In this document: one piece after another, positions 3,491-27,739 of the stretch
Numbering within the stretch: the first letter of the stretch is position 1
Layout of the letters: each line of letters begins with the position of its first letter
Source of the DNA: Candidatus Falkowbacteria bacterium
GTDB taxonomy: Bacteria; Patescibacteriota; Patescibacteriia; UBA11705
Direction: 5' to 3'
DNA: 64,000 nucleotides
Assembly: GCA_003518055.1 (NCBI GenBank)
Contig: DOZJ01000005.1
Location: 1,319 to 65,318, forward strand
The notes under the pieces: generated by a model
Databases searched by the model: none
What the model was told of the DNA's origin: nothing
The model's input: the letters and a program-made list of their open reading frames with translations, nothing else
Made by a program: the position numbers and the translations under genes

Positions 3491-3550
3491 AATATTTAAC
3501 AGTTTAATAATTTATTTATTAAGCCATACTTTTGTAGTTAAAGTTACACC

Positions 3551-3648
3551 CTCTTTACTCTTCGCTCTTTACTCTTCGCTTTTTACTCTTCGCTCTTTAC
3601 TCTTCGCTTTTTACTCTTCGCTCTTTACTCTTTACTCTTTACTTCCTC
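3551..3648. repeat. About 7 tandem copies of a 14-bp unit (CTCTTTACTCTTCG alternating with CTTTTTACTCTTCG)
   Basis: Read directly in the intergenic region upstream of the FG-GAP gene. The plus-strand ORF 3327..3713 is just a translation of this repeat. Confidence 0.85.
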
Positions 3649-4070
3649 CGTTACAGTTACCCCGCCATACTTCAATAGTTATAGTTGTTTTGTCAAACTT
3701 TTATAAAAACTAACTTGTGACCGCCAAAATTTTGTAGTTCCAGTTACCCCGCCAAACTTTTGTAGTTCCTGTTAAACAAAAATGAGCCCGCAATTCGGCT
3801 CAAATCATCACCCAAAATCCTTTTGGCTGTTTGTACAAATATTGATTGAATGTTTTATCAACACCACTCATATTGTCATGGGTAATTTCTCTAGTATTAT
3901 AACAGATCATCATAGCAAATCCAGTCTAAAATGTCAACCACAGCCGACAGAACCATCATTTAAACCCCCATTTTAAGGCAAAAAGCCTGTTGTAAACCAC
4001 TGACAAAACTTATGGTGAATAAAATTCAGTTATGCAAATAAAAAAGATTACCATTATTAGTAATCTCTAA

Positions 4071-4520: not shown

Positions 4521-4861
4521 CTTCCGTTGCCCGCATTGAATGCAGGCTATTCGTACCAGTTATCTGACGGACACCGTACCCATGGACACCTTGTCTGTCG
4601 CACCGGCCATGAAACGTTTCGATAGCCACCTCACTCCTCTCGGAAATCACCGAGAATATAAGCCTCCTTTATTTCATGAACAAATTATCATAACACACAA
4701 TTTTTTATTTGTCAATTGTATATCCCACCCCACCATCAAAACTACTATTTTAAGGCAAAAAAACCTGTTGAGCGTCTTCAACAAAATCATCGTAGCGGCC
4801 TTTTAATTTTCCTTGTTTATTCTTATCTTATATTTAATCAAAATTCCTGCTATCATAAATT

Positions 4862-5275
4862 ATGAATTATAAACTTAAATCAAATATGAAAATTGTTATT
4901 TGCGCCAGCAGTAAATTTATCGATGAAATTAATTTTTGGAAACAAAAACTTGTAAATGATGGTCACGTTGTAATTAAATATCCTGAAAAAATTGAAGGTG
5001 ATTTTCTCACCGGATATCAAAAAGAGTTCACGGATCATTATAAAAGAATCACTGAATGTGACGCGCTTTTCATCCTCAATATTAAAAAAAATAATATAGA
5101 AGGATATATCGGGCCTGGAGTTTATGCGGAAATTGCCTTTGCCGTCGGTCTCAAACGGTCTCAAAACAAACAAATTAAAATTATTTGCGTTAATCCCACC
5201 CCCAACAACCTACCACATTCTGAAGAACTAAAATTCTGGGAGAGCCTCGGCTGGATTGAAATTAAACCGCGATAA
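4862..5275 (+). CDS. Nucleoside 2-deoxyribosyltransferase-like (LOG/SLOG-type Rossmann fold) protein
   Basis: Pattern MKIVICASS ... CDALFILN ... GYIGPGVYAEIAFAVGL resembles the NDT/PF05014-like family, with a conserved Glu in AEIA. AT-rich. Intrinsic terminator follows at 5283-5312. Confidence 0.5.
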   Translation: MNYKLKSNMKIVICASSKFIDEINFWKQKLVNDGHVVIKYPEKIEGDFLTGYQKEFTDHYKRITECDALFILNIKKNNIEGYIGPGVYAEIAFAVGLKRSQNKQIKIICVNPTPNNLPHSEELKFWESLGWIEIKPR

Positions 5276-5282
5276 AAAATAT

Positions 5283-5312
5283 AAAATCGCTGAATTCAGC
5301 GATTTTTTTATG
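5283..5312 (+). terminator. Rho-independent terminator (AAAATCGCTGAA/TTCAGCGATTTT palindrome plus T-run)
   Basis: Perfect inverted repeat followed by TTTTTTT immediately after the stop of 4862..5275. Confidence 0.7.
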
Positions 5313-5551
5313 GCCACAAATTTTCTACAAATGCTCTTAACAACTCATAAGATCTATTCATCATTTCAAAATCATCCACACGTCCCCACCAATGATTTGA
5401 ATTGTGATGAATATGACATCTACTGTAATCTTCATCTATATACCATTTTCTCAACACAAATTTTTCTGGGTTTTGATAATTTGAACAAATTTATTTATAA
5501 TCAAGACAAAAATATTACACTTAAATAAACTATTCACATATTAAGCAAAGT

Positions 5552-5590
5552 TGACAACACCCCTCTATTTGCTAAGATATAATTCGAAAA
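5552..5590 (+). promoter_or_regulatory. Sigma70-like promoter (TTGACA - 16 nt - TAAGAT/TATAAT region) upstream of the small ORF 5628..5777
   Basis: TTGACAacacccctctatttgcTAAGATATAAT read directly, about 40 nt upstream of a GGAGG RBS. Confidence 0.4.
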
Positions 5591-5627
5591 GACCTTTTGA
5601 ACCAACTCGTCACAATGGAGGTGTCAG

Positions 5628-5777
5628 ATGAATCTGGATCCTACCGGACGCAACCTAATACCCGGCTGTTATTGTTCAATCAATCCAAATAATGACCACA
5701 AAAACTGTATAAAGGCTAAAATAGATATGTACAAAAAATCACCAAAATCATCCTCTGGCCATTTCGCAAACTCATAA
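5628..5777 (+). CDS. Small Cys-containing peptide ORF (49 aa: MNLDPTGRNLIPGCYCSINPNNDHKNCIKAKIDMYKKSPKSSSGHFANS)
   Basis: GGAGG at 5617-5621 with a 6-nt spacer to the ATG at 5628. Promoter-like hexamers upstream and a stem-loop plus T-run downstream. Below the 60-aa cutoff of the ORF track. Sits next to the rSAM/SPASM and methyltransferase genes. Confidence 0.4.
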   Translation: MNLDPTGRNLIPGCYCSINPNNDHKNCIKAKIDMYKKSPKSSSGHFANS

Positions 5778-5784
5778 ATTCAAT

Positions 5785-5822
5785 TAAACGCTGGTAATAC
5801 CTAGCGTTTTTTATTTTTGAGC
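5785..5822. terminator. Bidirectional stem-loop terminator between the convergent small ORF and the methyltransferase gene
   Basis: AACGCTGGtaatacCTAGCGTT followed by TTTTTATTTTT on the plus strand; A-rich on the other side. Confidence 0.5.
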
Positions 5823-6275
5823 AGAAGCTTCTAACACCCTATGCCAATGATTATGACCTTCCTCATCATCAAAAACATCAAAAACTCTAAAAACAATGTT
5901 ACGAAACCCCTCTTTATGCAATAATTTTGACAATAAATCACCAGTAAACTTTGAAGAACTATTCAAATCAGACAAATCAAAAGTCTGAATAAAAAACCAT
6001 CCGTCTTTTTTTAAATTTTCAAACGCAGTCTTTACAAATTCAGTCTGATTTTTTATCTTATGTATCACAAAATTTGAATATACCAAATCAAAGGGTCTCT
6101 TTTTAGATAAATAAAATTTTTCTAAATTCACTCCCATTTTCAAATCAACCCCTTCGACCTCCCATCCCATTTTTTTTAAACCATTTACATCTACTAATTC
6201 CCCCGCCCCTAAATCAAGAGCCCTCTTTGGGATTGAATAATTATCAAGAACAAACATCTTTAATCTTTTATTCAT
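5811..6275 (-). CDS. Small class I SAM-dependent methyltransferase
   Basis: Motif I LDLGAGEL(VD). The ORF-track ORF 5811..6335 begins at a TTG overlapping the rSAM 3' end; the first ATG in frame is at 6275 (MNKRLKMFVLDNY...). Confidence 0.6.
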   Translation of the reverse strand: MNKRLKMFVLDNYSIPKRALDLGAGELVDVNGLKKMGWEVEGVDLKMGVNLEKFYLSKKRPFDLVYSNFVIHKIKNQTEFVKTAFENLKKDGWFFIQTFDLSDLNSSSKFTGDLLSKLLHKEGFRNIVFRVFDVFDDEEGHNHWHRVLEASAQK

Positions 6276-6283
6276 ATAAACTG

Positions 6284-6317
6284 AATTAAAATTATAAAAA
6301 ACCGTAAAATTACGGTT
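6284..6317 (-). terminator. Stem-loop (AAACCGTA-ATTT-TACGGTTT) plus U-run directly after the rSAM stop codon
   Basis: 8-bp perfect stem overlapping the stop at 6317-6319, followed in minus sense by TTTTATAATTTT. Confidence 0.5.
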
Positions 6318-7402
6318 TACTTGTTTAAGAAACAATGAGGGTCTTCAGCCAAATAATCACCATTTTGGATATGTGCTCGAGCTCGACATCCACCACACTG
6401 ATACTTCAAGCCACATGAACCGCATTTCCCAGATAAATTCATCCCCAACATCTCTTTAACAATTCTATTTTTTTTGTATTCCTCAATCATTTCATCTATA
6501 GTCATTGAAAAAGTATTCATCATAGGAATATTCAATAAAGCACATGGGGTCATGGTTCCATCAGAATTAACATTAAAAGTGATTGCTGCCGCTCCACACC
6601 CATCAAAAACCAACTCGTCCTCTCTTCCCAGATCAGAAACACCTCGTAAAATACATTTTAGGGGGTCATTAGTTGTTACATTTACATCTGGAAAAATATT
6701 CTTCAACCTATAAACTTCTTCTAAAAAATCTTTCTTTTGTTCCCAAGTCATCCACAGATCAATACGATCAATTGCTCTGCCTGCAGGATGTATCGCTGAG
6801 AAACTTACTCTTTTACATCCCAAATCGACCGCAAACCTAACCATACTTTCCATTTCATCAATCTGATTTGGTCTTATTGTTGATCTCATAGATGGAACAA
6901 TAGCGTCATCATTAGCCCCCGCAGCTAGTCTCAAAGCTTTCACCGCGGAATCAAAGGCTCCTGTACTACATCTAAATGCGTCGTGCTTTTCCTGATCCAA
7001 ATCATCAAGACTGATAGATAATACGAATCTGGAAAAAGATAATTTTTTGATCAAATTGATGTGTCTCTCTCTTAAAAAAGTTCCATTCGTGGTTAATGTA
7101 ACATACTCGCCACCATTACCTCTTACTGCTGTCAAAACATCATCAAACTCAGAATGCAACAAAGGTTCTCCTCCAGACAGTACAATCTCTTTATAATTTG
7201 GACTGAACATTCGAGCAAACTCAATTATTTTTAGAATTTGTTCTAAAGGCATATCTCGTTTTAACTGGTGAGAAGCCCTACAATGCTTACAGTTCATATT
7301 ACATCTACCAGTAATTTCCACCTGGATTTGTCCAAACTCAATTTCATAAATAGCATCTTCAGTTTCTACCTCCAACCTGGGTTTTGCACTTTTACATTCC
7401 AT
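6317..7402 (-). CDS. Radical SAM / SPASM-domain peptide-modifying-type enzyme
   Basis: CNMNCKHC (CxxxCxxC) and the GGEPLL motif. C-terminal Cys-rich SPASM region (C...GKCGSCGLKYQCGGCRARAH). Two in-frame ATGs at 7414 and 7402; the latter has a GGAGGG RBS 4-5 nt upstream. Confidence 0.85.
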   Translation of the reverse strand: MECKSAKPRLEVETEDAIYEIEFGQIQVEITGRCNMNCKHCRASHQLKRDMPLEQILKIIEFARMFSPNYKEIVLSGGEPLLHSEFDDVLTAVRGNGGEYVTLTTNGTFLRERHINLIKKLSFSRFVLSISLDDLDQEKHDAFRCSTGAFDSAVKALRLAAGANDDAIVPSMRSTIRPNQIDEMESMVRFAVDLGCKRVSFSAIHPAGRAIDRIDLWMTWEQKKDFLEEVYRLKNIFPDVNVTTNDPLKCILRGVSDLGREDELVFDGCGAAAITFNVNSDGTMTPCALLNIPMMNTFSMTIDEMIEEYKKNRIVKEMLGMNLSGKCGSCGLKYQCGGCRARAHIQNGDYLAEDPHCFLNK

Positions 7403-7437
7403 TGGTCCCTCCATTTTAAAAGGGGAAAATCACTGAT

Positions 7438-7461
7438 TCTCCCCGTCTGATTGTGACCACG
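7438..7461 (-). promoter_or_regulatory. Two short hairpins between the precursor-like peptide ORF and the rSAM gene (possible attenuator or processing structure)
   Basis: In mRNA sense, TTGTGAC-tgacagacgtg-GTCACAA overlaps the peptide stop codon. It is followed by GGGGAG-aatcagtga-TTCCCC and then TTTTAAAA. Confidence 0.35.
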
Positions 7462-7465
7462 TCTG

Positions 7466-7531
7466 TCAGTCACAAATGCTGCAGCTTCCCTTGCCGATTC
7501 TGACCTTGATACGCTTCTTCTTGGGAGACAT
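7466..7531 (-). CDS. 21-aa Cys-containing peptide (MSPKKKRIKVRIGKGSCSICD); candidate RiPP precursor for the adjacent rSAM/SPASM enzyme
   Basis: AAGGAGG 7 nt upstream of the ATG at 7531; stop TGA at 7466-7468. Same strand and 64 nt upstream of the rSAM start. Confidence 0.45.
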   Translation of the reverse strand: MSPKKKRIKVRIGKGSCSICD

Positions 7532-7836
7532 CTTACATCCTCCTTACCTGCCTAATTCAATAGTTACAATTTTGATTGTGGCGCTAATATAGCACCTTCG
7601 TCAAGCTGTAACTTTGAATTTAGGACTTTGGGCTGAATTTAAAGAGCATCTAATTAAAGGATATCAGAACAATCGTATCTGTCAAGCGCTCGTTAAGGTA
7701 TGCCCCATATTCTGTATTGGGCTTGTTGCTTTGTTTATTCAAATATAACAATTTAAGACAAATTTGACAAAATAACATACTCTATATAACATACTCTACA
7801 ACAATCAGTTCCTTGAAAAACGAAGGATGGGCACCC

Positions 7837-8934
7837 ATGAATATTGTAACCACCTTGCCGATCACACCGAGACGCGACCCTCCACTTGGGTTATTCCTCC
7901 AGCCTTTTATTTGCGACCTGATCAGTCATTCAAATTTATCATTACAATATATTCAAAGCTTCAATCTAATGGGACGAAAAACCAACATGGATACTGAAAC
8001 CTTTCTGGCAAAAATGAAATATATGGGGATTATCCCGCCTCAAATTTGGTTTGACACCGCTTCAGACAATATTGAAATACTATCAGCCTTGATCAACCAT
8101 TTTATTGCCGAAGATAAAATTATCATAGAAAAAACAGCTGTGGTGAGCTGTTCGTGTGGCCGGGTGGAAACACTGGCTACACCAGACAACATTAAAGCGA
8201 TCAAACAATCAAAATCAAAAGGAAAATTAATTTTTGAACAACACAATGAATTATATTGCAAAATTTGCTGCTCATTGCTTAAAATCAGACTGGATTATGT
8301 CCTGCTGTTTCACACCGGTTTTTATAAACCCGATTATGAAATTAAAATTTCTCCCTCAAATTTTAAAGCCGAATTTAATCAGTTATGGTGCTACTTCAAT
8401 AATAAAAAAATTCTTATTTCACGATCATCGCTGCCGCACCCTTTAATCCCGACCATTGCCGGAGAATTTCGAATCGACGTTGACTTCCTCTGGCAAAATA
8501 TTATTAATATTTTTCATCTCCAGCACAATACCGTAAACATTATTGTCACCAGCCACAAATTAATGCAAAAAATGGTTTTTGCTTTAATTTTCGCCAGAGA
8601 ATTTGGCACGCCGCCGCCTTCAAATGTTATTCTGCTTCCGTATATTCATTTAACCGAGCACCACTCGGAAGTCTATGACTACATGAAACTCGCCCCCTGT
8701 CTTTTACGCGCCTTTCTTCTGTTGGGCTGGAGTCGACAGAAAAAAATATCACTTGAATTCAAACAGCTGAGCCGGTTGAAAATTCCCGACCCGGAATCAC
8801 CGACCAGGAGAAATTCTTCTCTCGGCAACATACCCCGAAATTTCAATCCGTCAGCGCTTTTCAAGCTTTGCGCCAAACACTCAGATAAATACTCCGATGA
8901 AGAATTGCAGATATTATCGCTCCTAAAACCTTAG
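7837..8934 (+). CDS. Hypothetical protein (about 365 aa)
   Basis: The ORF-track ORF 7813..8934 starts at TTG; the ATG at 7837 has an AAGGA RBS. Stem-loop terminator overlaps the stop. Confidence 0.55.
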   Translation: MNIVTTLPITPRRDPPLGLFLQPFICDLISHSNLSLQYIQSFNLMGRKTNMDTETFLAKMKYMGIIPPQIWFDTASDNIEILSALINHFIAEDKIIIEKTAVVSCSCGRVETLATPDNIKAIKQSKSKGKLIFEQHNELYCKICCSLLKIRLDYVLLFHTGFYKPDYEIKISPSNFKAEFNQLWCYFNNKKILISRSSLPHPLIPTIAGEFRIDVDFLWQNIINIFHLQHNTVNIIVTSHKLMQKMVFALIFAREFGTPPPSNVILLPYIHLTEHHSEVYDYMKLAPCLLRAFLLLGWSRQKKISLEFKQLSRLKIPDPESPTRRNSSLGNIPRNFNPSALFKLCAKHSDKYSDEELQILSLLKP

Positions 8935-8940
8935 GAGTTT
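8911..8940 (+). terminator. Rho-independent terminator (CTCCTAA-aacc-TTAGGAG plus TTTTTT)
   Basis: Read directly; overlaps the stop of the 7837..8934 gene. Confidence 0.55.
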
Positions 8941-8988
8941 TTTAATTGACAAATATACCAATTATTCATATTATAAAATCAAACGACA

Positions 8989-10773
8989 TTGATTATGACA
9001 ACCAATCATTCAACAATTTTCAAGCGCATTGGCTCCCAAACACAAAACAAAAACATTCTGCTTTATTGTCCCGGCCTGCCTGAATCAAAAAAAGTTTTAA
9101 ACAAATTAAGGATATTTTGTTCAGAGGCTGATTTGGAGCTGCAGATTATGTGCTACCCCGGAACACCCGGAAACAAAGGTCAATTTTTGCAATTCAATCC
9201 GGCCAAAACAATAGATAATTATATTTGCCAAATAAAACACAAAAAAAATCGCGCTGTTTTTGTCCTTGGCGACAGTTTTGGCGCCTCAGTTGCTCTCAAC
9301 ACATCATTGGCTGACAAAATCATCGCCATTTCTCCGGTTATAAACTGGAAATCTCTCTATCAAAAAAATTCCCCGGAAGAAAATTACGCCACTTTTCTCG
9401 CCTATTTAATCACTGTCGGCTACAATATAAATCACAAAAACTGGACAAAACTCAAATCCGACAATCTATTAAACAGCATAAATCAAACCACCCCGACGCT
9501 GATAATGGCCAGCAAAAACGACCCGACTGTGAAAATCGAGCCTCTGTTATCGCTCAAACAACAAAATCACGATACGCGTCTATGCGCTGAAAAGAAACAT
9601 CTATCATTCAGGACATTAAATCAAAAACAAATTATCGCATTAAAAAAATTTTTGTTAACTGATAAAATTCAAAAAAGGACATCTAAAAATAATAAAATTA
9701 TACATCAACTTATCGCCGGACACCACAAAGACTCCATCATTTCATTTGGGTCCCAAGCCGCCGACAACTCGGTGCCGGAATCAGACCTCGATTTATTGAT
9801 CATATCAGATAAACCCGTTATCCAAAATCAACAGAACAGAACAATAGAATTAAAATACTGTAACCAAGATATATTTAAAAAATATTCCCGAGAAACCCTT
9901 AGAGGGGCGGTTAAATTGATCACCTCAAATATTATCCGAAGTAATAACGAAGATACTGTATCAATTTCAAGTCTGAAATCCTACCTGCTAAAACGCCACA
10001 AACCAACCATTCTATTGGCTTTATTGCTGGAACAATATCGCTTCGGCCAAAAAAAATATCCTCAGGGCAGTCCGATTGAGGCCAAGTTCGCCCCGGGTGG
10101 ACGCAGACATCTGGGATTCATGACCGTCGCCAACAACATTATCAACAATCGACCATGTTCAAATTTCTGGGAATCGCTTCATGACCTGCTGACGAAAAAT
10201 ATTATCAACTATCAAGACATATCGAACATAAACATTTTTTTCTATTATCTGCAGACCGCGCCTCGAAGAAGAAACAAAATTATTATAAAAAAACACATAA
10301 CCGCGAACACAAAAATTGTGGCCAAATTTTTTCATAGTTATTTCGCGCCCCGAATAATGCAAGATTTTAGCATAAAAATCAAAATTACAGAAAAACGAAT
10401 ATCAGCGGATACTACACGTCATGAAATTAAAGATATGTTTGACGCCTTATTCACCAGATCAATCAAACACCAAGTAAATCTCTGGCGGCAATATCAAAAT
10501 AACACCAACCATCTCGTGAAGCATATTATTTTTTATTATCTGGCCTGCAATCAACATTTATCCCTGCCAATAGCAAAAAATATTATCAATCTATATATCG
10601 ACTCCCCAATTGATTCAAACATTATTCGTAATATTGTCCAAAACAGCAGCCTCAATTGCCAACCAGAAATAATTGCATCAATAAAACAATCACCTGACAT
10701 CAAGATCCAAAAATATCTTAGAGAATTTAAACGCAATCGTTATATTTTTTCACAAAAAATAATCAGAGGTTAA
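8989..10773 (+). CDS. Fusion protein: N-terminal alpha/beta-hydrolase (GDSFG nucleophile elbow), a minimal Pol-beta-type nucleotidyltransferase domain, and a helical C-terminal region
   Basis: VFVLGDSFGASVA (GxSxG) in the N-terminal domain. In the middle domain ISFGSQAADNSVPESDLDLLIISD matches hG[GS]-x10-DhDh. Very AT-rich, N/K/I-rich composition. Confidence 0.6.
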   Translation: MIMTTNHSTIFKRIGSQTQNKNILLYCPGLPESKKVLNKLRIFCSEADLELQIMCYPGTPGNKGQFLQFNPAKTIDNYICQIKHKKNRAVFVLGDSFGASVALNTSLADKIIAISPVINWKSLYQKNSPEENYATFLAYLITVGYNINHKNWTKLKSDNLLNSINQTTPTLIMASKNDPTVKIEPLLSLKQQNHDTRLCAEKKHLSFRTLNQKQIIALKKFLLTDKIQKRTSKNNKIIHQLIAGHHKDSIISFGSQAADNSVPESDLDLLIISDKPVIQNQQNRTIELKYCNQDIFKKYSRETLRGAVKLITSNIIRSNNEDTVSISSLKSYLLKRHKPTILLALLLEQYRFGQKKYPQGSPIEAKFAPGGRRHLGFMTVANNIINNRPCSNFWESLHDLLTKNIINYQDISNINIFFYYLQTAPRRRNKIIIKKHITANTKIVAKFFHSYFAPRIMQDFSIKIKITEKRISADTTRHEIKDMFDALFTRSIKHQVNLWRQYQNNTNHLVKHIIFYYLACNQHLSLPIAKNIINLYIDSPIDSNIIRNIVQNSSLNCQPEIIASIKQSPDIKIQKYLREFKRNRYIFSQKIIRG

Positions 10774-10900
10774 AGTGATCCGATCGTAATTTCAAATAAT
10801 ATTTTGATCTTGCCTTGTTGAACATGTGCTTCTCTCATACCCCACCCATTCCTTGTGAAATAATAATTCAATCTAATCATACCAAATAAAGTTCGTCAAT

Positions 10901-11482
10901 ATGTCAAAAATAAATTTCTACTACAATCGCGCTGATGATGTTAAAAATTGGACACGACACCACGAACAACACATCCCGACCTTGTCAAAAAGTCTCCAAT
11001 TCCTGCTAGAACAAAATATAGTGACGTTACAAAAAACCTGGAATTTTTTGGGAAGTAACATAATCCAAGCCCTTGAAAAAACTCTTGAAAAGCCCAACAC
11101 CACCACAAAATATACGTCCGCGCTCACAACCTACCACTCATGCCCCTACGACCCTGCCCACAACTGGTTCATGGTTTCTATCAAGGCCAGCCTGCCATCC
11201 CAAATCACCAATATCGCGCACGAATTACTGCATCTCCAATTTATCCATCACTACGGAGATTATTGCCACAAAATGAAAATAAATGAAAAACAATTTCATA
11301 TATTAAAGGAATCGCTCACCGTAATATTAAACACCTCTCGCTTTCAAAAAATTATCCCCGCGCTTGACAAAGGTTATTCGGAACATCAAAAAATAAGACA
11401 AAAAGTTTTTGGGGCATACAAACCAACAATGAAATTCCAAAAATTTCTCGATCATACAATCAAAATTATAAAAACCAATTAG
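10901..11482 (+). CDS. Hypothetical protein with an HExxH motif (IAHELLHLQFIHH); possible metal-dependent hydrolase
   Basis: Complete ORF; the HELLH motif was read directly. Terminator-like hairpin follows. Confidence 0.5.
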   Translation: MSKINFYYNRADDVKNWTRHHEQHIPTLSKSLQFLLEQNIVTLQKTWNFLGSNIIQALEKTLEKPNTTTKYTSALTTYHSCPYDPAHNWFMVSIKASLPSQITNIAHELLHLQFIHHYGDYCHKMKINEKQFHILKESLTVILNTSRFQKIIPALDKGYSEHQKIRQKVFGAYKPTMKFQKFLDHTIKIIKTN

Positions 11483-11487
11483 AATAA

Positions 11488-11516
11488 ACAAACAGGGACA
11501 ATCAGCCCCTGTTTTT
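11488..11516 (+). terminator. Stem-loop (ACAGGG...CCCTGT) plus T-run
   Basis: acagggacaatcagcccctgttttttatt read directly after the 10901..11482 stop. Confidence 0.5.
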
Positions 11517-11860
11517 TATTACCTCACTTAACATTTCAATTACACCGGCAAGATTGGCCATGACCTCTCTGTTGGTAAATCTGATGACCCGCAAGCCGAG
11601 ACTTTCCAAATAATTCGTCCATTCCTGATCGTAAAATATATTTTCCGGCAGAAAATGATGCCCGCCGTCGACTTCGATCACCAGCTTCGCGGCCGGGCAA
11701 TAGAAATCAACGATGTAACACCCAAAACCTTTTGTCGATAAAATTGCAACTTGTTGATTTGTTTTCTTCTAATTCTCAACCACAATTTTTTCTCCGGCAA
11801 AGTCATCCCTTTCTGAAGTTCACGCGCGAACGGTTTGAGTTTCTGATTATAATAATTCAT
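11502..11860 (-). pseudogene. DUF559 (Vsr-like endonuclease-domain) gene disrupted by a frameshift; paralog of 12948..13295
   Basis: The N-terminal 60 aa (MNYYNQKLKPFARELQKGMTLPEKKLWLRIRRKQINKLQFYRQKVLG) align to the intact paralog. The homologous C-terminus (YIVDFYCPAAKLVIEVDGGHHFLPEN...LGLRVIRFTNREV) continues in a different frame from about 11700 down to a TGA at 11502. Confidence 0.55.
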
Positions 11861-12210
11861 GATAGTTAATGTCTAATCCCCCTTGGGTTCCCCCTTGAAA
11901 CATCAAGGGGGATGTGTGCTTCATCGCAAAGCCAAAACAACCCCGCCGCGAAGCTACCAACCTTCCCCCTTAATTATTAAGGGGGACTGAGGGGGATTTC
12001 TTCTAGCCGCCAATCCCCATTTTCATCAAATTTTACCCTATTTTCCCCTTAATATTATACAAGATTGTTATCCACAGTCCCTCTTGCTTTCTTATATCCA
12101 CCGACTATTGCTTGACTTTTTTCCCTTTATATGATAAGCTGTAGGTGTAAAGGTAAGGCGTGAATCAGCACACACACACCCGCCAACGGCGGGAGAAACC
12201 GGAGGACCTC

Positions 12211-12852
12211 ATGACCACGCGCCACTCGTTCCTTTCCATTTTCGTTACTCTCGCTCTCCTGCTCTTCGCCTTCGGCTGTGAAGCCGGCGGCGGCGACACC
12301 AACCCGAACCCGGACATCCAGTCCGGCAGCGACACCGGCAATCCGCCGGACGACACCGGCTCTCCGCCCGACGACTCCGGCAACAAGCCCGACTCGCCGG
12401 ACCCGACCGACGTGCCGGATCCGCCGACCTGCGAGGGCGATCTCGTCGAGCTCGAACGCGATGGCGTGACCGAGTGCGTCTCGGCCGACTTCGCCGAGGC
12501 GGTCGAGGCTCTCGATGGTCTCGAGCTGACGCAGACTCAGCCGAACACCAACCCGGAAACCATCACGTTGGAATTCTATCATGTCACTGACTTTGACGAG
12601 GCTGTAATCCAGTGTGAGGGCTTTTCCCGATTCTTCATCCAGGGACTGGCTGGTGCAGTAGATGTGGCTTGTATAGACGAAAGCTTGGCATTGTCCATGT
12701 GTGAGGTGGACACTACCTTCTGTTTCGGCGGGACTCTCACCGGCCAAATCACCTACAGCAAGTCAGCCCAACCAGAAGTGGTGCTGCAAACCGACTTCTG
12801 TGGTGATCTCGGATGCGACAATTTCGTCTACGAATCTGATGTCAACGAGTAG
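12211..12852 (+). CDS. Lipoprotein with a low-complexity Pro/Asp/Gly linker and a Cys-rich C-terminal domain; its 5' half is about 65% GC
   Basis: GGAGG 5 nt upstream of the ATG at 12211. MTTRHSFLSIFVTLALLLFAFGC is a lipobox-type signal peptide. GC content far above neighbouring genes. The antisense ORFs 12127..12747 and 12165..12386 are artefacts of the GC-rich composition. Confidence 0.7.
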   Translation: MTTRHSFLSIFVTLALLLFAFGCEAGGGDTNPNPDIQSGSDTGNPPDDTGSPPDDSGNKPDSPDPTDVPDPPTCEGDLVELERDGVTECVSADFAEAVEALDGLELTQTQPNTNPETITLEFYHVTDFDEAVIQCEGFSRFFIQGLAGAVDVACIDESLALSMCEVDTTFCFGGTLTGQITYSKSAQPEVVLQTDFCGDLGCDNFVYESDVNE

Positions 12853-12947: not shown

Positions 12948-13295
12948 TTATAAATATTTCATTATTTCCAATACAACCCCTTCGATATTAGTCAATACAT
13001 CACGATTGGTAAACCTTATTACCCGCAGCCCCAGTGTTTCCAAATAGGCTGTGCGCTCCTCGTCATAAAACTGATTCTCCGGTTCAAAGTGCTGGCTGCC
13101 GTCAACTTCGATTACTAAACTAGCCGCGGGACAATAAAAATCTACGATATAGTTACCTAAAATTTTTTGGCGATAAAAGTGGAAACCATTCAGCTGTTTG
13201 CGTCTAATTTTTGACCACAACAGTCTCTCGGTACCGGTCATTTCACGCCGCAGTTCCCGCGCGCGATATTTTAACTCTATATTATATTCTTTCAT
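12948..13295 (-). CDS. DUF559 endonuclease-domain protein (Vsr/very-short-patch-repair-like fold)
   Basis: 115-aa ORF with the typical DUF559 pattern (ARELRREMTGTERLLWSKIRRKQLNGFHFYRQKILGNYIVDFYCP...VIEVDGSQH). Confidence 0.75.
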   Translation of the reverse strand: MKEYNIELKYRARELRREMTGTERLLWSKIRRKQLNGFHFYRQKILGNYIVDFYCPAASLVIEVDGSQHFEPENQFYDEERTAYLETLGLRVIRFTNRDVLTNIEGVVLEIMKYL

Positions 13296-23827: not shown

Positions 23828-25921
23828 TTAAAGCGTTGTTTGTCCACCTTTATCAAAATTACCCGAGCCCAAAACAACTGTTTGTACTTTCTCTATTTTA
23901 CCTATACTGCCATCAATTTGCACAAAATCACCTAATTTCAAAACGCTTTTCGATAATGAATATCCAACTATAACTGGAATATTTTTTTCACGAGCCACGA
24001 TTGCCAAATGCGATAATAAACCTCCATTTTCTGACACAATCCCAGAAATTTTATCAAAATATTTTGTTAAAGCAGGTGATAATATTTCGGTATACAAAAT
24101 AATCTTTTTATTCTCTGTTTTTCCTGAATCGAGATATGAACGATTTTGTAAAACACCCGTTGCCACACCCGCAGAAACACCAGAGATATCCACCCTCTTT
24201 TGAATAAATGATGAAGTAATTGAGTTTGGCAGACAATATTCATTGTGTTGGGTATAAATATTTTTTCTTTTTTTGCAAACTATTTCATCGATCAGACTGC
24301 CAAGAATTTCATCGATATTTGCAAAATAAATATTCTGTACATCGTTAAACTCTTGAGCTTTTGCATAATTTAATAATAAAGTCCTTATCGCGGTTATGTT
24401 CTTGATAGTTAACCATCGGCCCAATTCTCTTAACCGATTATAAATTATAGCTTCCTTAATTTTGTCTTGGAGTATCTTCTTTTTGAAAGCGGACATCTTT
24501 CCCCACCATTGCGATACCTTGTCGCTTGTTTGGCTTACTATTTTTTCAGTCGCTGAGAAGTTTGACTCATCGGAAATCTCCAAAGAATTACCTTTTAAAT
24601 TCTGCATTAACACTACTGGATAATGACCCCAGTCAACAAACAGACTACTTTCATTAAAAATGTCCGGTAACTTTATCGGTTCTTTTTTAAGGAGGTAATT
24701 TAGTTTTTTTATCGCCAAACCGGATAAAAGGTTTGTTTCAAAAATCAATTTATAATCCGTTAAAAAATTTCTCAACGCTACTTGAAAATCATATTCTTGA
24801 TTGGACGTCTCAATTTTTATTTTTAAATTAAAAAATATTTGCTCATAGCCATTGGTTTGAATTTTATTCAGAAAAAAAAGATTTTTTATCGTTGGGATAA
24901 TTTTTGAATAGCTGCTGAATTTTGGAAAAAACGTTCTATTTTGTAAATAGCTAAAAGCTGGAAGCAAACTTTGAATTTCCCGTTCTTTATCCACAAAAAG
25001 CTCATTTCCTATAATGTGTAAAAATTCCGTATCCTTAAAATTAACGCCGTACTTACTATAAACTTCATTTACCGGTCCATCATGGGAATAAACACGTTTC
25101 AAAAGACAACGGGTGAACTCTGTCGGTCTTGGTGCGATTTCTGAAACTTCTGTTTTTTCAAAAAAATACTTTTCACTGTCCGACAATTGTTTTTCTAAAA
25201 AATTTACTTGCTCATATTGCTGACTGGTGATAGTGGTAATGGGCCTTGTTTGTAACAGATAAAATTGATTATCTTTGATACACCATTCAATATCTTGCGG
25301 AAATTTAGTTTTATTTTCAATATCCTTAAATTTTTCAACTATTTGGTTCATTAAAAATTGTTTGGGTAATTTGACGTCTTTTTCATTCCTGTAAAAATTA
25401 ATTTTTTCTGGTTTTATTTCTCCGCTTACTATTTTTTCTCCTTCGCAAAACCCGTATTCAATCATCATTTCTCTGCTGCCATTTGGATTTCTCGTAAAAG
25501 TAACACCGGAAATATCAGGGACGATATATTCCTGAACAATTATTGAGAATTTATCAAGTTCACCGTGCAGATAATCATTCGCCTGCTTTAAGACCTCGTC
25601 TATTCCTCCAATCAATTCGTCACTGGATAGATTAAGCTTGGTTTTAAATTGTCCTGCAAATGATTTGTTTTTGCTATCTTCAATCAAAGCGCTTGATCTC
25701 ACTGTATATTTTTTACATTGTAAAATACTGATCGCTTCTTTAGCTATTTCTTTTTTCAGAATATCGCTTGAGCTTAATTCACTAAAAACATACGAAGGTA
25801 TTCCGACAAATTTTGGGACATTAAAACCCCAATCTACGAGCTTCTTTAGATTGAGCGTTTTATTGCCTAAGAATTGTTTATTTTGATCAATTTCTTGCAG
25901 TTGAATAATATTATTTGTCAT
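23828..25921 (-). CDS. PEP-utilizing enzyme family protein (PPDK/PEP-synthase-type N-terminal nucleotide-binding domain plus C-terminal phosphohistidine mobile domain)
   Basis: C-terminal GGLLSHLAIVAREKNIPVIVG matches the PEP-utilizers signature. N-terminal RSSALIEDSKNKSFAGQF matches the PPDK_N/PEP-synthase ATP-binding region. Very AT-rich. Confidence 0.65.
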   Translation of the reverse strand: MTNNIIQLQEIDQNKQFLGNKTLNLKKLVDWGFNVPKFVGIPSYVFSELSSSDILKKEIAKEAISILQCKKYTVRSSALIEDSKNKSFAGQFKTKLNLSSDELIGGIDEVLKQANDYLHGELDKFSIIVQEYIVPDISGVTFTRNPNGSREMMIEYGFCEGEKIVSGEIKPEKINFYRNEKDVKLPKQFLMNQIVEKFKDIENKTKFPQDIEWCIKDNQFYLLQTRPITTITSQQYEQVNFLEKQLSDSEKYFFEKTEVSEIAPRPTEFTRCLLKRVYSHDGPVNEVYSKYGVNFKDTEFLHIIGNELFVDKEREIQSLLPAFSYLQNRTFFPKFSSYSKIIPTIKNLFFLNKIQTNGYEQIFFNLKIKIETSNQEYDFQVALRNFLTDYKLIFETNLLSGLAIKKLNYLLKKEPIKLPDIFNESSLFVDWGHYPVVLMQNLKGNSLEISDESNFSATEKIVSQTSDKVSQWWGKMSAFKKKILQDKIKEAIIYNRLRELGRWLTIKNITAIRTLLLNYAKAQEFNDVQNIYFANIDEILGSLIDEIVCKKRKNIYTQHNEYCLPNSITSSFIQKRVDISGVSAGVATGVLQNRSYLDSGKTENKKIILYTEILSPALTKYFDKISGIVSENGGLLSHLAIVAREKNIPVIVGYSLSKSVLKLGDFVQIDGSIGKIEKVQTVVLGSGNFDKGGQTTL

Positions 25922-27551
25922 ACTCCCAAGGTGTGTTATATCTGCCTAAAAATTGGTGCCCTCTCCGCTCCAATTCGACTCCCGTAATTTTAGCATCAAA
26001 ACAATTGACGTATCCGTCGCAAACTGTAATGACTTTACTATTTGCTGGAACTTGGCTAAATGTTTTTTCAAGATTGATAGTTGGAGTATACATTATCGGG
26101 ATATTCACACTTCCAGCAATATGCGATCTATATGGCTCTCTCGTATCAACAAGGACCACACCTTCTGCTACTTTCTTTTTAAGCTCATCCGTACTAAATA
26201 GAATTTGATATTTTGAATCTGTATATTTTTCCCCGAATTTGATTTCTCCAACCCATTTGCCGCCAAATTCAACCCAGCCGTTAGCGCCACCTTCCAAATA
26301 AGACGACACAATTTTTTTGGTTCTCAAAAATTCGGCCACTTCTTCACCTCGTATCCCGGACCAACAAATTACATAAACAAACTTATCTTTTGGTAATTCA
26401 ATCCAACGGCCTGCTTTTATGTCGGCAAACCGCATATGTAAACTTCCGGGGAAATAACCATTTTCGTATTCAATATCTTCTCTGGCGTCTAAAACAATAT
26501 AATCGTTTTGCTGGTTGTCTGTGATATTTTTAAAATCCTGATTTGTAACAAGCATGCTTGCACTTTCATTTTTGGCAAAAAAATCATATTCTTGGGCAAT
26601 TTTACTTTCATCAACGGAAACATTTTGATTATCAATTAACCCTTGAGCCAAAATTTTAACTTCCGATTTTTCCACTCTTACCGGTATCTCGCTTTGTAAC
26701 GCTAAAGTCATCAAAACACCATATCTCGTGAATGTTCCGTCCTCATATAAAGTTAATTCGATTGATGATTTTTTTTCATCAATCCGAACCAATTTATCCA
26801 ACGTTATTTTAGAGGTTTTTAAATACCAACCTTTGAAAGTGTCAAAGCCAACAGTTTTTTTAGACCTTTCATAGGCTTGTTCTAAATTTCCATTGGCAAT
26901 ATTTCCGTAGTATTCGCTTATAAACTTAGCCGAACTATCATTTAAATTTATATTGGAGATAAATTTTTTAGCAGAGGTGTCAATATTTTTGTTATTCTCA
27001 GCACCAATATGTAATTGGTCATTTTCATCATCATTAACCCCGCTGCCGCCAAGTTTTCCTGGACCATTTGGGTTATATCCATTTTTTACTTCCTCTCCGT
27101 CCAAATATCCATCACCATCCGTATCCGGATTATTTAGATCAGTGCCAAAGTTTTTTTCTTCTAAATCAGTTAATCCATCATTATCTGAATCATAATTGAT
27201 ATTTTGACTTGCGGCGTATAGTTGACTTTCTTCAAGCCATTTTTGATATTCGATTTTTTGCTTGTAGATTGCGTAAAAATAAGACGAAACAATAGATATT
27301 ACTATAATAGCGAGAATAGTCAGACTTAAAATTGTTTTTTTATATTTAAAAGCATAATATCTTGTCTTAAAAAATTGGAACAACGTTCCAAAAATGGCAG
27401 TAAAAAATATTGCAACCATTGAAAAAAATTGAGCTACTTGAGTTCCAATATTGAAAATAAAATCAGGTGGAATTACGGCCTGGGCGGGTTGAGGGTAAAA
27501 ATAATACCCAAGAAGTAAAAACGCTGATACTTTTAAAATTTTTTTATTCAT
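25911..27551 (-). CDS. Secreted or membrane protein with TSP3-like Ca-binding repeats and two C-terminal rhodanese-homology domains
   Basis: Signal peptide MNKKILKVSAFLLLGYYFYPQPAQA, taken from the ATG at 27551; the longest ORF begins at 27647. DSDNDGLTDLEE...DTDGDGYLDGEE repeats. The first rhodanese domain has the catalytic loop VICWSGIRGEE; a second rhodanese-like domain follows. Overlaps the previous gene by 11 bp. Confidence 0.6.
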   Translation of the reverse strand: MNKKILKVSAFLLLGYYFYPQPAQAVIPPDFIFNIGTQVAQFFSMVAIFFTAIFGTLFQFFKTRYYAFKYKKTILSLTILAIIVISIVSSYFYAIYKQKIEYQKWLEESQLYAASQNINYDSDNDGLTDLEEKNFGTDLNNPDTDGDGYLDGEEVKNGYNPNGPGKLGGSGVNDDENDQLHIGAENNKNIDTSAKKFISNINLNDSSAKFISEYYGNIANGNLEQAYERSKKTVGFDTFKGWYLKTSKITLDKLVRIDEKKSSIELTLYEDGTFTRYGVLMTLALQSEIPVRVEKSEVKILAQGLIDNQNVSVDESKIAQEYDFFAKNESASMLVTNQDFKNITDNQQNDYIVLDAREDIEYENGYFPGSLHMRFADIKAGRWIELPKDKFVYVICWSGIRGEEVAEFLRTKKIVSSYLEGGANGWVEFGGKWVGEIKFGEKYTDSKYQILFSTDELKKKVAEGVVLVDTREPYRSHIAGSVNIPIMYTPTINLEKTFSQVPANSKVITVCDGYVNCFDAKITGVELERRGHQFLGRYNTPWEYDK

Positions 27552-27739
27552 GCTGTGATTATTGTAGTTTGTTTTTTTTATTTCCAAGCGTCGCCATTTG
27601 GTGATATCAACACCACGCAAAAAACACCTCATTAAATGGAAAACCAATCTGAAAATTTATTTAAACTGCTTGAACGCCTGTCCAACATTAAGGCCGCACC
27701 TCAGGTATGGGATACAAACCACCACGACCAAACCAACGG

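Follow-up and report, generated by a model that had tools for sequence, protein, structure and literature searches.

A 64,000-nucleotide (nt) stretch of contig DOZJ01000005.1 from a Candidatus Falkowbacteria genome (Patescibacteria, candidate phyla radiation (CPR)), referred to here as the window, carries a cassette of three minus-strand genes inside a 7-kb AT-rich stretch. These genes encode a 21-amino-acid (aa) peptide, a radical S-adenosylmethionine (SAM)/SPASM enzyme and a class I SAM methyltransferase. An initial annotation of this DNA had read the Cys-containing peptide directly 5′ of the SPASM enzyme as a precursor-maturase pair, and every open reading frame (ORF) was found where that annotation had placed it. 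The cassette comprises the following features:

7539..7545, minus strand: Shine-Dalgarno sequence AAGGAGG, 7 nt 5′ of the peptide ATG (read from the sequence)
7466..7531, minus strand: precursor-like peptide gene, 21 aa, MSPKKKRIKVRIGKGSCSICD (ORF listing)
7418..7444, minus strand: hairpin GGGGAGAAT-cagtg-ATTTTCCCC and then TTTT, in the gap that separates the peptide stop from the start of the radical SAM gene (sequence and RNA folding)
6317..7402, minus strand: radical SAM/SPASM enzyme, 361 aa (PF04055, E 2.8e-25)
6299..6318, minus strand: terminator-like hairpin AAACCGTAATTTTACGGTTT with a T-run, between the radical SAM and methyltransferase genes (hairpin scan)
5811..6275, minus strand: small class I SAM methyltransferase, 154 aa (Methyltransf_23, E 2.7e-14)

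The N-terminal part of the peptide is polybasic and amphipathic, and the C-terminus reads C-x-x-C-D. A consensus terminator scan, whose loop and tail rule the hairpin at 7418..7444 does not satisfy, left it unlisted, and we regard it as a candidate leaky terminator or attenuator. GC content was 0.362 over positions 4521-11500 compared with 0.445 in the remaining window, and GC at third codon positions (GC3) was 0.29 in the radical SAM gene and 0.26 in the methyltransferase gene compared with about 0.5 in housekeeping genes. These figures bear out the AT-rich islet described initially, and the composition of the cassette is foreign to the Falkowbacteria genome. The peptide gene itself (7466-7531) showed a GC3 of 0.68 and a codon usage sharply unlike that of the other two genes (GC3 0.26-0.29).

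Conservation of the peptide with the enzyme

Each of the first three foreign loci inspected contained a small ORF ending in ...RI[KR]VRIGKGSCSICD directly 5′ of the enzyme gene. A scan of one genome per species recovered family members, each at least 34% identical, at about 47 loci. Among the usable loci, i.e. those with an intact enzyme gene and sufficient upstream DNA, the peptide was encoded 5′ of the radical SAM gene and on the same strand in 43 of 44, and it was lost in both loci where the radical SAM gene was truncated or interrupted by a stop (L041 and L042). The reciprocal test, in which metagenome contigs were scanned with a back-translated DNA pattern of the peptide, yielded 45 loci. 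Downstream DNA extended for at least 400 nt in 39 of these, and every one of the 39 encoded the radical SAM enzyme on the same strand, 21-207 nt 3′ of the peptide; four shorter ones showed the first residues of the enzyme, and two ended 17 and 47 nt past the peptide. Since both directions of the search returned linked genes (43/44 and 39/39), peptide and enzyme are an obligate pair.

The initial annotation had made its reading depend on conservation of the small ORF with the enzyme in relatives and on its translation. The former is answered by the linkage above, which gives the proposed pair strong comparative-genomic backing, and the codon pattern and the ribosome-binding sites agree on the latter. 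Across 28 loci, codon variability in the VRIGKGSC segment was 0.058 at position 1, 0.004 at position 2 and 0.496 at position 3, and these same eight residues were encoded by 26 distinct DNA sequences. Third-position variation so far above second-position variation indicates that the peptide is translated and under purifying selection. The sequence AAAGGAGG, equivalent to a Shine-Dalgarno site, was present at proper spacing 5′ of the peptide in most bacterial relatives. Conservation beside the enzyme and the coding-type substitution pattern exclude a chance ORF. Linkage, codon pattern and Shine-Dalgarno site together describe a translated small peptide gene coupled to a modifying enzyme, as generally expected of peptides that are synthesized ribosomally and then modified post-translationally (RiPPs).

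The consensus across loci was KK[RK][IV][KR]VRIGKGS-C-x-[IR]-C-[DE]-stop, in which the VRIGKGS stretch and the first Cys were near-invariant and the two residues following this Cys differed among loci. Position +3 from the first Cys was again Cys, replaced by Ser in a remote branch of the family, and position +4 was occupied by D (25), E (6), G (4), N (3), S (2) or C (2). Accordingly variable were the C-terminal tails, among them CSICD, CCRCE, CAICN, CGICS, CRTCDTNG and CTCCCQY, as well as CTTSGSYK or CSTCGDYK in the remote branch; several variants thus extend C-terminally beyond the Asp. Read from these sequences, the conservation follows RiPP logic, with a fixed recognition stretch and Cys and variable residues after the Cys. 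The precursors ranged from 19 to 45 aa, and most, at 19-30 aa, are of a size overlooked by annotation: common gene callers skip ORFs under about 30 codons, and no gene was called at the peptide position in the one annotated copy inspected. Searches of the peptide against Pfam and NCBIfam gave no match at E<=10.

RNA folding predicted a GC-rich hairpin, often with a U-run, a few bases past the peptide stop in nearly all bacterial loci, where the structure was kept while the sequence differed from locus to locus. Five DPANN loci showed neither this hairpin nor a Shine-Dalgarno site, as would suit genuinely archaeal loci, and this speaks against the peptide as a mere part of a bacterial attenuator. 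The enzyme gene has a second Shine-Dalgarno site of its own. RiPP operons such as sbo-alb have the same layout of precursor, hairpin and maturase, which would yield the precursor in excess of the enzyme.

The radical SAM/SPASM enzyme and the methyltransferase

The match to PF04055 and a CX3CX2C motif at C34/C38/C41, invariant in 48 sequences, place the enzyme in the radical SAM superfamily. Eight further Cys in the C-terminal half were conserved, each in at least 47 of the 48 sequences (C250; C269-X12-G282-X4-C287; C327-X2-C330-X5-C336-X2-C339; C357). They include the seven-Cys signature of SPASM domains (CX9-15GX4C ... CX2CX5CX3C ... C), predicted to bind two auxiliary clusters, with one spacing of X2 in place of the canonical X3. 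The Pfam SPASM model did not match the enzyme at E<=0.01, and NCBIfam SPASM families aligned with it over its full length. More than 100 close homologues were present in the protein database (58-72% identical, about 359 aa), mostly from Patescibacteria.

The enzyme scored under the cutoff of every NCBIfam family, and so did members of the remote branch. Its best scores were to NirJ2 (TIGR04055; 154 bits, cutoff 500) and AhbD (TIGR04545; 133 bits, cutoff 500), i.e. about 30% of the cutoffs, followed by TIGR04053 (131 bits), GeoRSP (120), ScmF (90), ACGX (86), PapB (83), PqqE (71) and MftC (70.5). A grouping with non-RiPP SPASM enzymes had been named initially as evidence against a RiPP precursor. 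The outcome on this point is divided: the top models are the non-RiPP families NirJ2 and AhbD, at the low scores given, and the peptide-associated GeoRSP, ScmF, ACGX and PapB stand close behind. We assigned the enzyme to none of the characterised families. For AhbD and NirJ2, scores were below 500 bits and no tetrapyrrole genes occurred among the conserved neighbours; for PqqE (TIGR02109; 70.9 against 381 bits) and MftC (TIGR03962; 70.5 against 265 bits), the partners PqqA/PqqD and MftA/MftB were also absent; and the PapB family (NF047865) has a cutoff of 340 bits, with remote-branch members scoring 70-102. The anaerobic sulfatase-maturating enzymes (anSME) were outside the 25 best NCBIfam matches and resembled the enzyme at fold level alone, and the peptide has no CxPxR motif.

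An AlphaFold2 model of the enzyme (predicted local distance difference test score, pLDDT, 91) appeared closest over its full length to SkfB, CteB, SuiB (template modelling score 0.76), anSME, PqqE and ChlB, which are peptide- or protein-modifying SPASM enzymes, and a sequence search of the Protein Data Bank (PDB) matched SkfB (1e-14) and CteB (3e-11). We found no RiPP recognition element (RRE) or PqqD-like domain in the enzyme, in which a hairpin of about 20 residues precedes the CX3CX2C motif at residue 34 and to which no PqqD-like Pfam model matched. Some RiPP enzymes are without an RRE, so that this domain is not strictly defining.

This N-terminal beta-hairpin (residues ~10-29, L-E-V-E-T-E-D-x-I-Y-E-I-E-F) is conserved and acidic, with a net charge of -3.8, and the conserved part of the peptide mirrors it in that basic and hydrophobic residues alternate. 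Hairpin charge and leader charge were inversely correlated (Spearman -0.51, p 2e-4, n=48 distinct pairs) by a statistic that ignores shared ancestry. Pairing of the leader with the acidic hairpin is a testable hypothesis, which we hold to be possible but somewhat less likely than not.

The methyltransferase matched Methyltransf_23 with 53.7 bits (cutoff 27) and carries the invariant class I motifs D21-L-G-A-G and G42-V-D44. A conserved C-terminal motif, D136-x4-H141-x-H143-W144-H145, may mark its active site. The family is tight, with about 135 clusters all of about 154 aa, and its gene adjoined the peptide-enzyme pair, on either side, in 26 genome and 27 metagenome loci (about 60% of loci), which upholds the SAM methyltransferase that had been assigned to the cassette. 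It was absent from DPANN loci and some others, and a different methyltransferase of 248 aa was encoded nearby in three loci. The AlphaFold2 model (pLDDT 97) suggested a generic fold of the small-molecule type, similar to uncharacterised structural-genomics methyltransferases, BioC, JHAMT and TehB; a PDB sequence search with the methyltransferase gave no match.

Distribution and genomic surroundings

Bacterial carriers of the cassette included Paceibacterota, Moranbacteria, Saccharibacteria (among them Nanosyncoccus and gut and oral metagenome-assembled genomes (MAGs)), Doudna-, Falkow- and Campbellbacteria, and further WS2, Riflebacteria, Planctomycetota and one gammaproteobacterial MAG. The Saccharibacteria included animal- and human-associated members (L027, L029, L030, L032), and some relatives of the carrier Saccharibacteria are co-culturable. 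Five bins labelled Woesearchaeota or Nanoarchaeota (L012, L016, L017, L034, L039) encoded a peptide and a radical SAM enzyme 62-70% identical to the bacterial ones; these labels derive from automated binning, and the intergenic regions of archaeal style are in their favour without being proof. The remote branch, at 34-39% identity, comprised Rickettsiales, Bdellovibrio and some Saccharibacteria. The distribution is centred on ultra-small, host-dependent bacteria and archaea. At the remote-branch Bdellovibrio locus (L047, 1442-2755), a MATE exporter adjoins the radical SAM gene, with MbnM as the closest family (176 bits, cutoff 285). The Rickettsiales loci L043 (3252-3695) and L044 (4658-5161) carry a small ORF 3′ of the radical SAM gene, which in L043 encodes a GNAT acetyltransferase.

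The enzyme of the window was 69-72% identical to those of Moranbacteria, Paceibacterota and Woesearchaeota-labelled bins and 54% identical to that of another Falkowbacteria genome. This higher identity to other groups than to another Falkowbacteria genome, together with the foreign composition, makes lateral spread of the cassette likely. Its acquisition, as proposed in the initial annotation, is therefore plausible from composition and from the patchy occurrence across phyla, but integration scars were not among the evidence: the window contained no tRNA genes, no integrase and no convincing flanking direct or inverted repeats. The sequences suggest that the cassette moved between domains and that its expression signals were then adapted. 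A phage-borne cassette found no support, as the peptide pattern had 0 matches in viral_contigs. A known anti-phage defence system was rejected, since PADLOC returned weak partial matches alone (the viperin core for the radical SAM protein, mad2 for the methyltransferase, PDC-S09 for a neighbouring nucleotidyltransferase).

All-against-all clustering of neighbouring ORFs from the 47 loci revealed, beyond the radical SAM enzyme and the methyltransferase, no conserved protease, exporter, immunity gene or RRE/PqqD-like protein; the other clusters were antisense ORFs within the radical SAM gene or sporadic genes. The flanking genes of the window, for proteins of 137, 365/373, 594 and 193 aa, were rejected as accessory genes because tblastn found no match to them in about 90 related loci. 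The divergent accessory genes that had been counted with the cassette (the 365-aa, hydrolase-nucleotidyltransferase and HExxH proteins, along with the 137-aa protein) must thus be taken out of it. The label nucleoside-deoxyribosyltransferase-like for 4862..5275 was also abandoned, as no Pfam or NCBIfam model matched even at E<=5. The other two labels held in part. In the supposed alpha/beta-hydrolase-nucleotidyltransferase fusion of 594 aa, the nucleotidyltransferase domain was recovered (E 3e-5) and the hydrolase just faintly (Hydrolase_4, E 0.06), and the 193-aa protein does contain an HExxH motif (HELLH) but matched no family.

These plus-strand genes form a divergent block at 7837-11482, consisting of the 365-aa protein without family, the 594-aa protein (541 aa in public gene calls), which has the nucleotidyltransferase domain, a GDSFG motif and weak PADLOC PDC-S09 matches, and the 193-aa HELLH protein. 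The block is unlinked to the peptide cassette elsewhere and may be a separate mobile or defence-like module. Between the methyltransferase and the 137-aa gene lies a small, separately bounded unit (5473-5810, plus strand). It has promoter-like sites at 5473-5501 (11/12 match) and 5551-5578, a 49-aa ORF with three Cys (5628-5777, plus strand; GGAGGT 6 nt before the ATG) and, 3′ of this ORF, a terminator-like hairpin with a T-run at 5786-5809. The 49-aa ORF had no family match, and the 5473-5810 region was absent from related loci.

Two DUF559 (endonuclease-like) genes, 11502-11860 and 12948-13295 (both minus strand), are located at the edge of the AT-rich stretch; the former, divided between two ORFs, is probably a pseudogene with a frameshift, and the latter is intact. 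Abutting the AT-rich stretch is a GC-rich patch (12160-12852, plus strand, GC 0.58-0.62), whose 230-aa product has a lipobox-like LLFAFGC and a Pro/Asp-rich segment encoded by 21-nt tandem repeats. The mosaic composition around this patch suggests a variable region. Elsewhere in the window, a tandem array at 3537-3662 consists of about 7-9 copies of the 14-nt unit CTCTTTACTCTTCG in a low-GC intergenic region or ORF end, and a second AT-rich patch at 23828-27647 (minus strand) holds two genes for proteins of 697 and 578 aa (GC 0.32-0.34, GC3 0.28-0.29; surrounding GC about 0.46).

Proposed pathway and relation to known systems

Our best reading, which we hold to be probable, is a three-gene RiPP-type precursor-maturase system covered by none of the family models used and by none of the papers searched. 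A strong ribosome-binding site of its own would give excess production of the 21-aa peptide, and the hairpin past the peptide stop would pass only part of transcription into the enzyme genes. The peptide is very probably the substrate of the radical SAM/SPASM enzyme, which would take it up without an RRE domain, and its basic alternating stretch K-R-I-K-V-R-I-G-K could pair as a beta-strand with the acidic hairpin L-E-V-E-T-E...Y-E-I-E-F. The enzyme would then modify the C-terminal C-x-x-C-[D/E] by radical chemistry. The likeliest reaction would join the invariant Cys, by a thioether within the peptide, to the residue at +4 (C-X3-D/E, as in substrates of PapB and QhpD). The C-X3-D/E spacing and the interchange of Asp and Glu between lineages point to this linkage, which we propose tentatively. 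The methyltransferase would be an optional tailoring enzyme acting on the remaining thiol or on a carboxylate. With neither a leader protease nor an exporter conserved, the cationic peptide may itself be the product in its entirety, or general proteases may free a small piece of it.

Several observations weigh against this reading. Modification of the peptide is what we infer throughout, and the chemistry rests on the same inference. The closest hidden Markov models are those of the non-peptide tetrapyrrole enzymes NirJ2 and AhbD (154 and 133 bits), with PapB at just 83. The neighbourhood has no conserved RRE, protease or exporter, which is unusual for a secreted RiPP; the fold match of the methyltransferase is generic; and the charge correlation between hairpin and leader takes no account of shared ancestry. 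Acidic residues do not always occupy +4 (G, N, S and C also occur there), and the remote branch has Ser in place of the second Cys, so that a single C-X3-D/E thioether cannot be universal. Variants with residues past the Asp argue against any chemistry that needs a free C-terminal Asp, and an MftC-like C-terminal decarboxylation was for this reason down-weighted as a universal step.

The same features could be viewed as those of a pathway like that of pyrroloquinoline quinone (PQQ) or mycofactocin, in which the peptide would still be the substrate and a small molecule derived from C-x-x-C-D would be excised by housekeeping proteases and used within the cell. Near-identity of a peptide across phyla and domains is typical of cofactor precursors, for instance PqqA and MftA, but not of antimicrobial RiPPs. 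Both precursors also have their core at the extreme C-terminus, as the peptide does; conserved exporter and immunity genes are absent; and the carriers (CPR and DPANN) have minimal biosynthetic capacity. Against such a cofactor stand the missing dedicated peptidase and PqqD/MftB-like partner, scores to PqqE and MftC (about 71 bits) far under the cutoffs, and the several variants extended past the Asp. The cassette is moreover patchy within lineages and compositionally foreign, which better fits an accessory trait, and we consider a cofactor pathway improbable.

It is considerably less probable still that the enzyme acts on a non-peptide substrate, as AhbD and NirJ do, and that the small ORF is a cis-regulatory leader or arrest peptide with the hairpin as transcription attenuator. 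A small ORF with a strong Shine-Dalgarno site and an immediate terminator-like hairpin is the classic layout of such elements, and NirJ2 and AhbD are the best NCBIfam matches. The scores of NirJ2 and AhbD, however, amount to some 30% of the cutoffs, genes for tetrapyrroles are absent from the neighbourhood and CPR bacteria are generally without haem synthesis. The conservation of amino acids across phyla alongside free synonymous change is unexpected for attenuation leaders, the peptide is kept in DPANN loci that have neither hairpin nor Shine-Dalgarno site, and an invariant Cys suits the peptide substrates of SPASM enzymes. Least probable is that the peptide is a metal- or sulfur-handling partner of the enzyme, as half of a zinc-ribbon-like CxxC knuckle that donates a cluster, sulfur or electrons: a predicted beta-strand followed by a CxxC knuckle does resemble the first half of zinc-ribbon proteins and the pair is strictly linked one to one. 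But two Cys by themselves are insufficient for a cluster, and the remote branch has Ser for the second of them; an excess of peptide over enzyme, as the hairpin suggests, suits a substrate rather than a subunit; and we know of no precedent among SPASM enzymes.

Under the RiPP-type reading, the significance of the cassette lies in where it occurs. CPR and DPANN organisms account for a large part of microbial diversity. Their genomes are tiny, and they are considered to produce very few specialised metabolites; the precursor-maturase cassette is conserved and shared across domains among these organisms. Near-invariance of the peptide from Paceibacteria to Woesearchaeota points to a target that is itself conserved, or to a role like that of a cofactor, rather than to an arms-race antibiotic. 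One could go further and imagine a new RiPP class or peptide-derived cofactor specific to host-dependent microbes, a minimal cassette of two to three genes that moves between bacteria and archaea, uses an acidic beta-hairpin in place of an RRE and makes a near-invariant cationic product for a universally conserved target in host or producer, as part of an episymbiotic lifestyle; this broader picture is speculative and, taken as a whole, rather unlikely. The system is tractable, as it consists of three small genes and has carriers among animal- and human-associated Saccharibacteria. A SPASM enzyme that has no RRE, may bind the leader by an acidic hairpin of its own and would act on a core of five residues would be instructive for RiPP enzymology whatever the chemistry.

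Among known systems, PapA/PapB (freyrasin) and CteA/CteB (SCIFF) share the short Cys-containing precursor directly 5′ of a SPASM radical SAM enzyme. In CX3D motifs, PapB joins Cys to the C-beta of Asp; the link made by CteB runs from Cys to Thr at i+4. The C-X3-D/E spacing at the C-terminus of our peptide is alike, and CteB is among the best fold and sequence matches. Unlike in these systems, the enzyme has no N-terminal RRE and scores 83 against 340 bits with the PapB model; the precursor, of 19-45 aa, carries its motif just once, in place of repeats or six Cys, and is near-invariant across phyla; the carriers are mainly CPR and DPANN; and a dedicated 154-aa methyltransferase is present. QhpD, also a SPASM enzyme, forms thioethers between Cys and Asp or Glu within the QhpC subunit, and by analogy the interchange of Asp and Glu at the acceptor position would fit such chemistry. 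Its family (quino_hemo_SAM) was, however, outside the 25 best matches of the window enzyme, with remote-branch members at 61-62 against 453 bits, and its substrate is an amine dehydrogenase subunit, for which no genes occur here.

PQQ and mycofactocin biosynthesis share a very short (about 20-30 aa) conserved precursor with reactive residues at the extreme C-terminus, a SPASM maturase and no exporter. They differ in having a PqqD/MftB RRE partner, a peptidase and downstream oxidoreductases, none of which were found with our cassette, and their enzyme models scored about 71 bits; the reactive residues would here be Cys and Asp rather than Glu/Tyr or Val/Tyr. AhbD, NirJ and NirJ2, the best-scoring models, are similar in length (about 330-360 aa) and also without RRE, whereas the enzyme described here reaches 133-154 of 500 bits, lacks a haem or d1 context and has an obligate peptide gene. 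The sbo-alb operon of subtilosin shows the same order of precursor, stem-loop and SPASM maturase with excess precursor transcript; it differs in its enzyme (AlbA, 73 against 850 bits), in the RRE of AlbA and in the immunity, export and protease genes of the operon, which our cassette lacks.

The peptide motif appeared in none of the open-access papers searched, and no paper among them on radical SAM peptides of CPR, DPANN or Saccharibacteria describes the system. With no curated family covering the pair either, the initial suggestion of an undescribed RiPP class gains support in that the system is probably undescribed. Its kind, a SPASM radical SAM enzyme with a Cys-containing peptide, is known, while the family is probably new. 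What sets it apart from the systems compared above is a combination of unusual traits: a very short and near-invariant precursor with a five-residue core, a pathway without RRE, protease or exporter, and a dedicated mini-methyltransferase.

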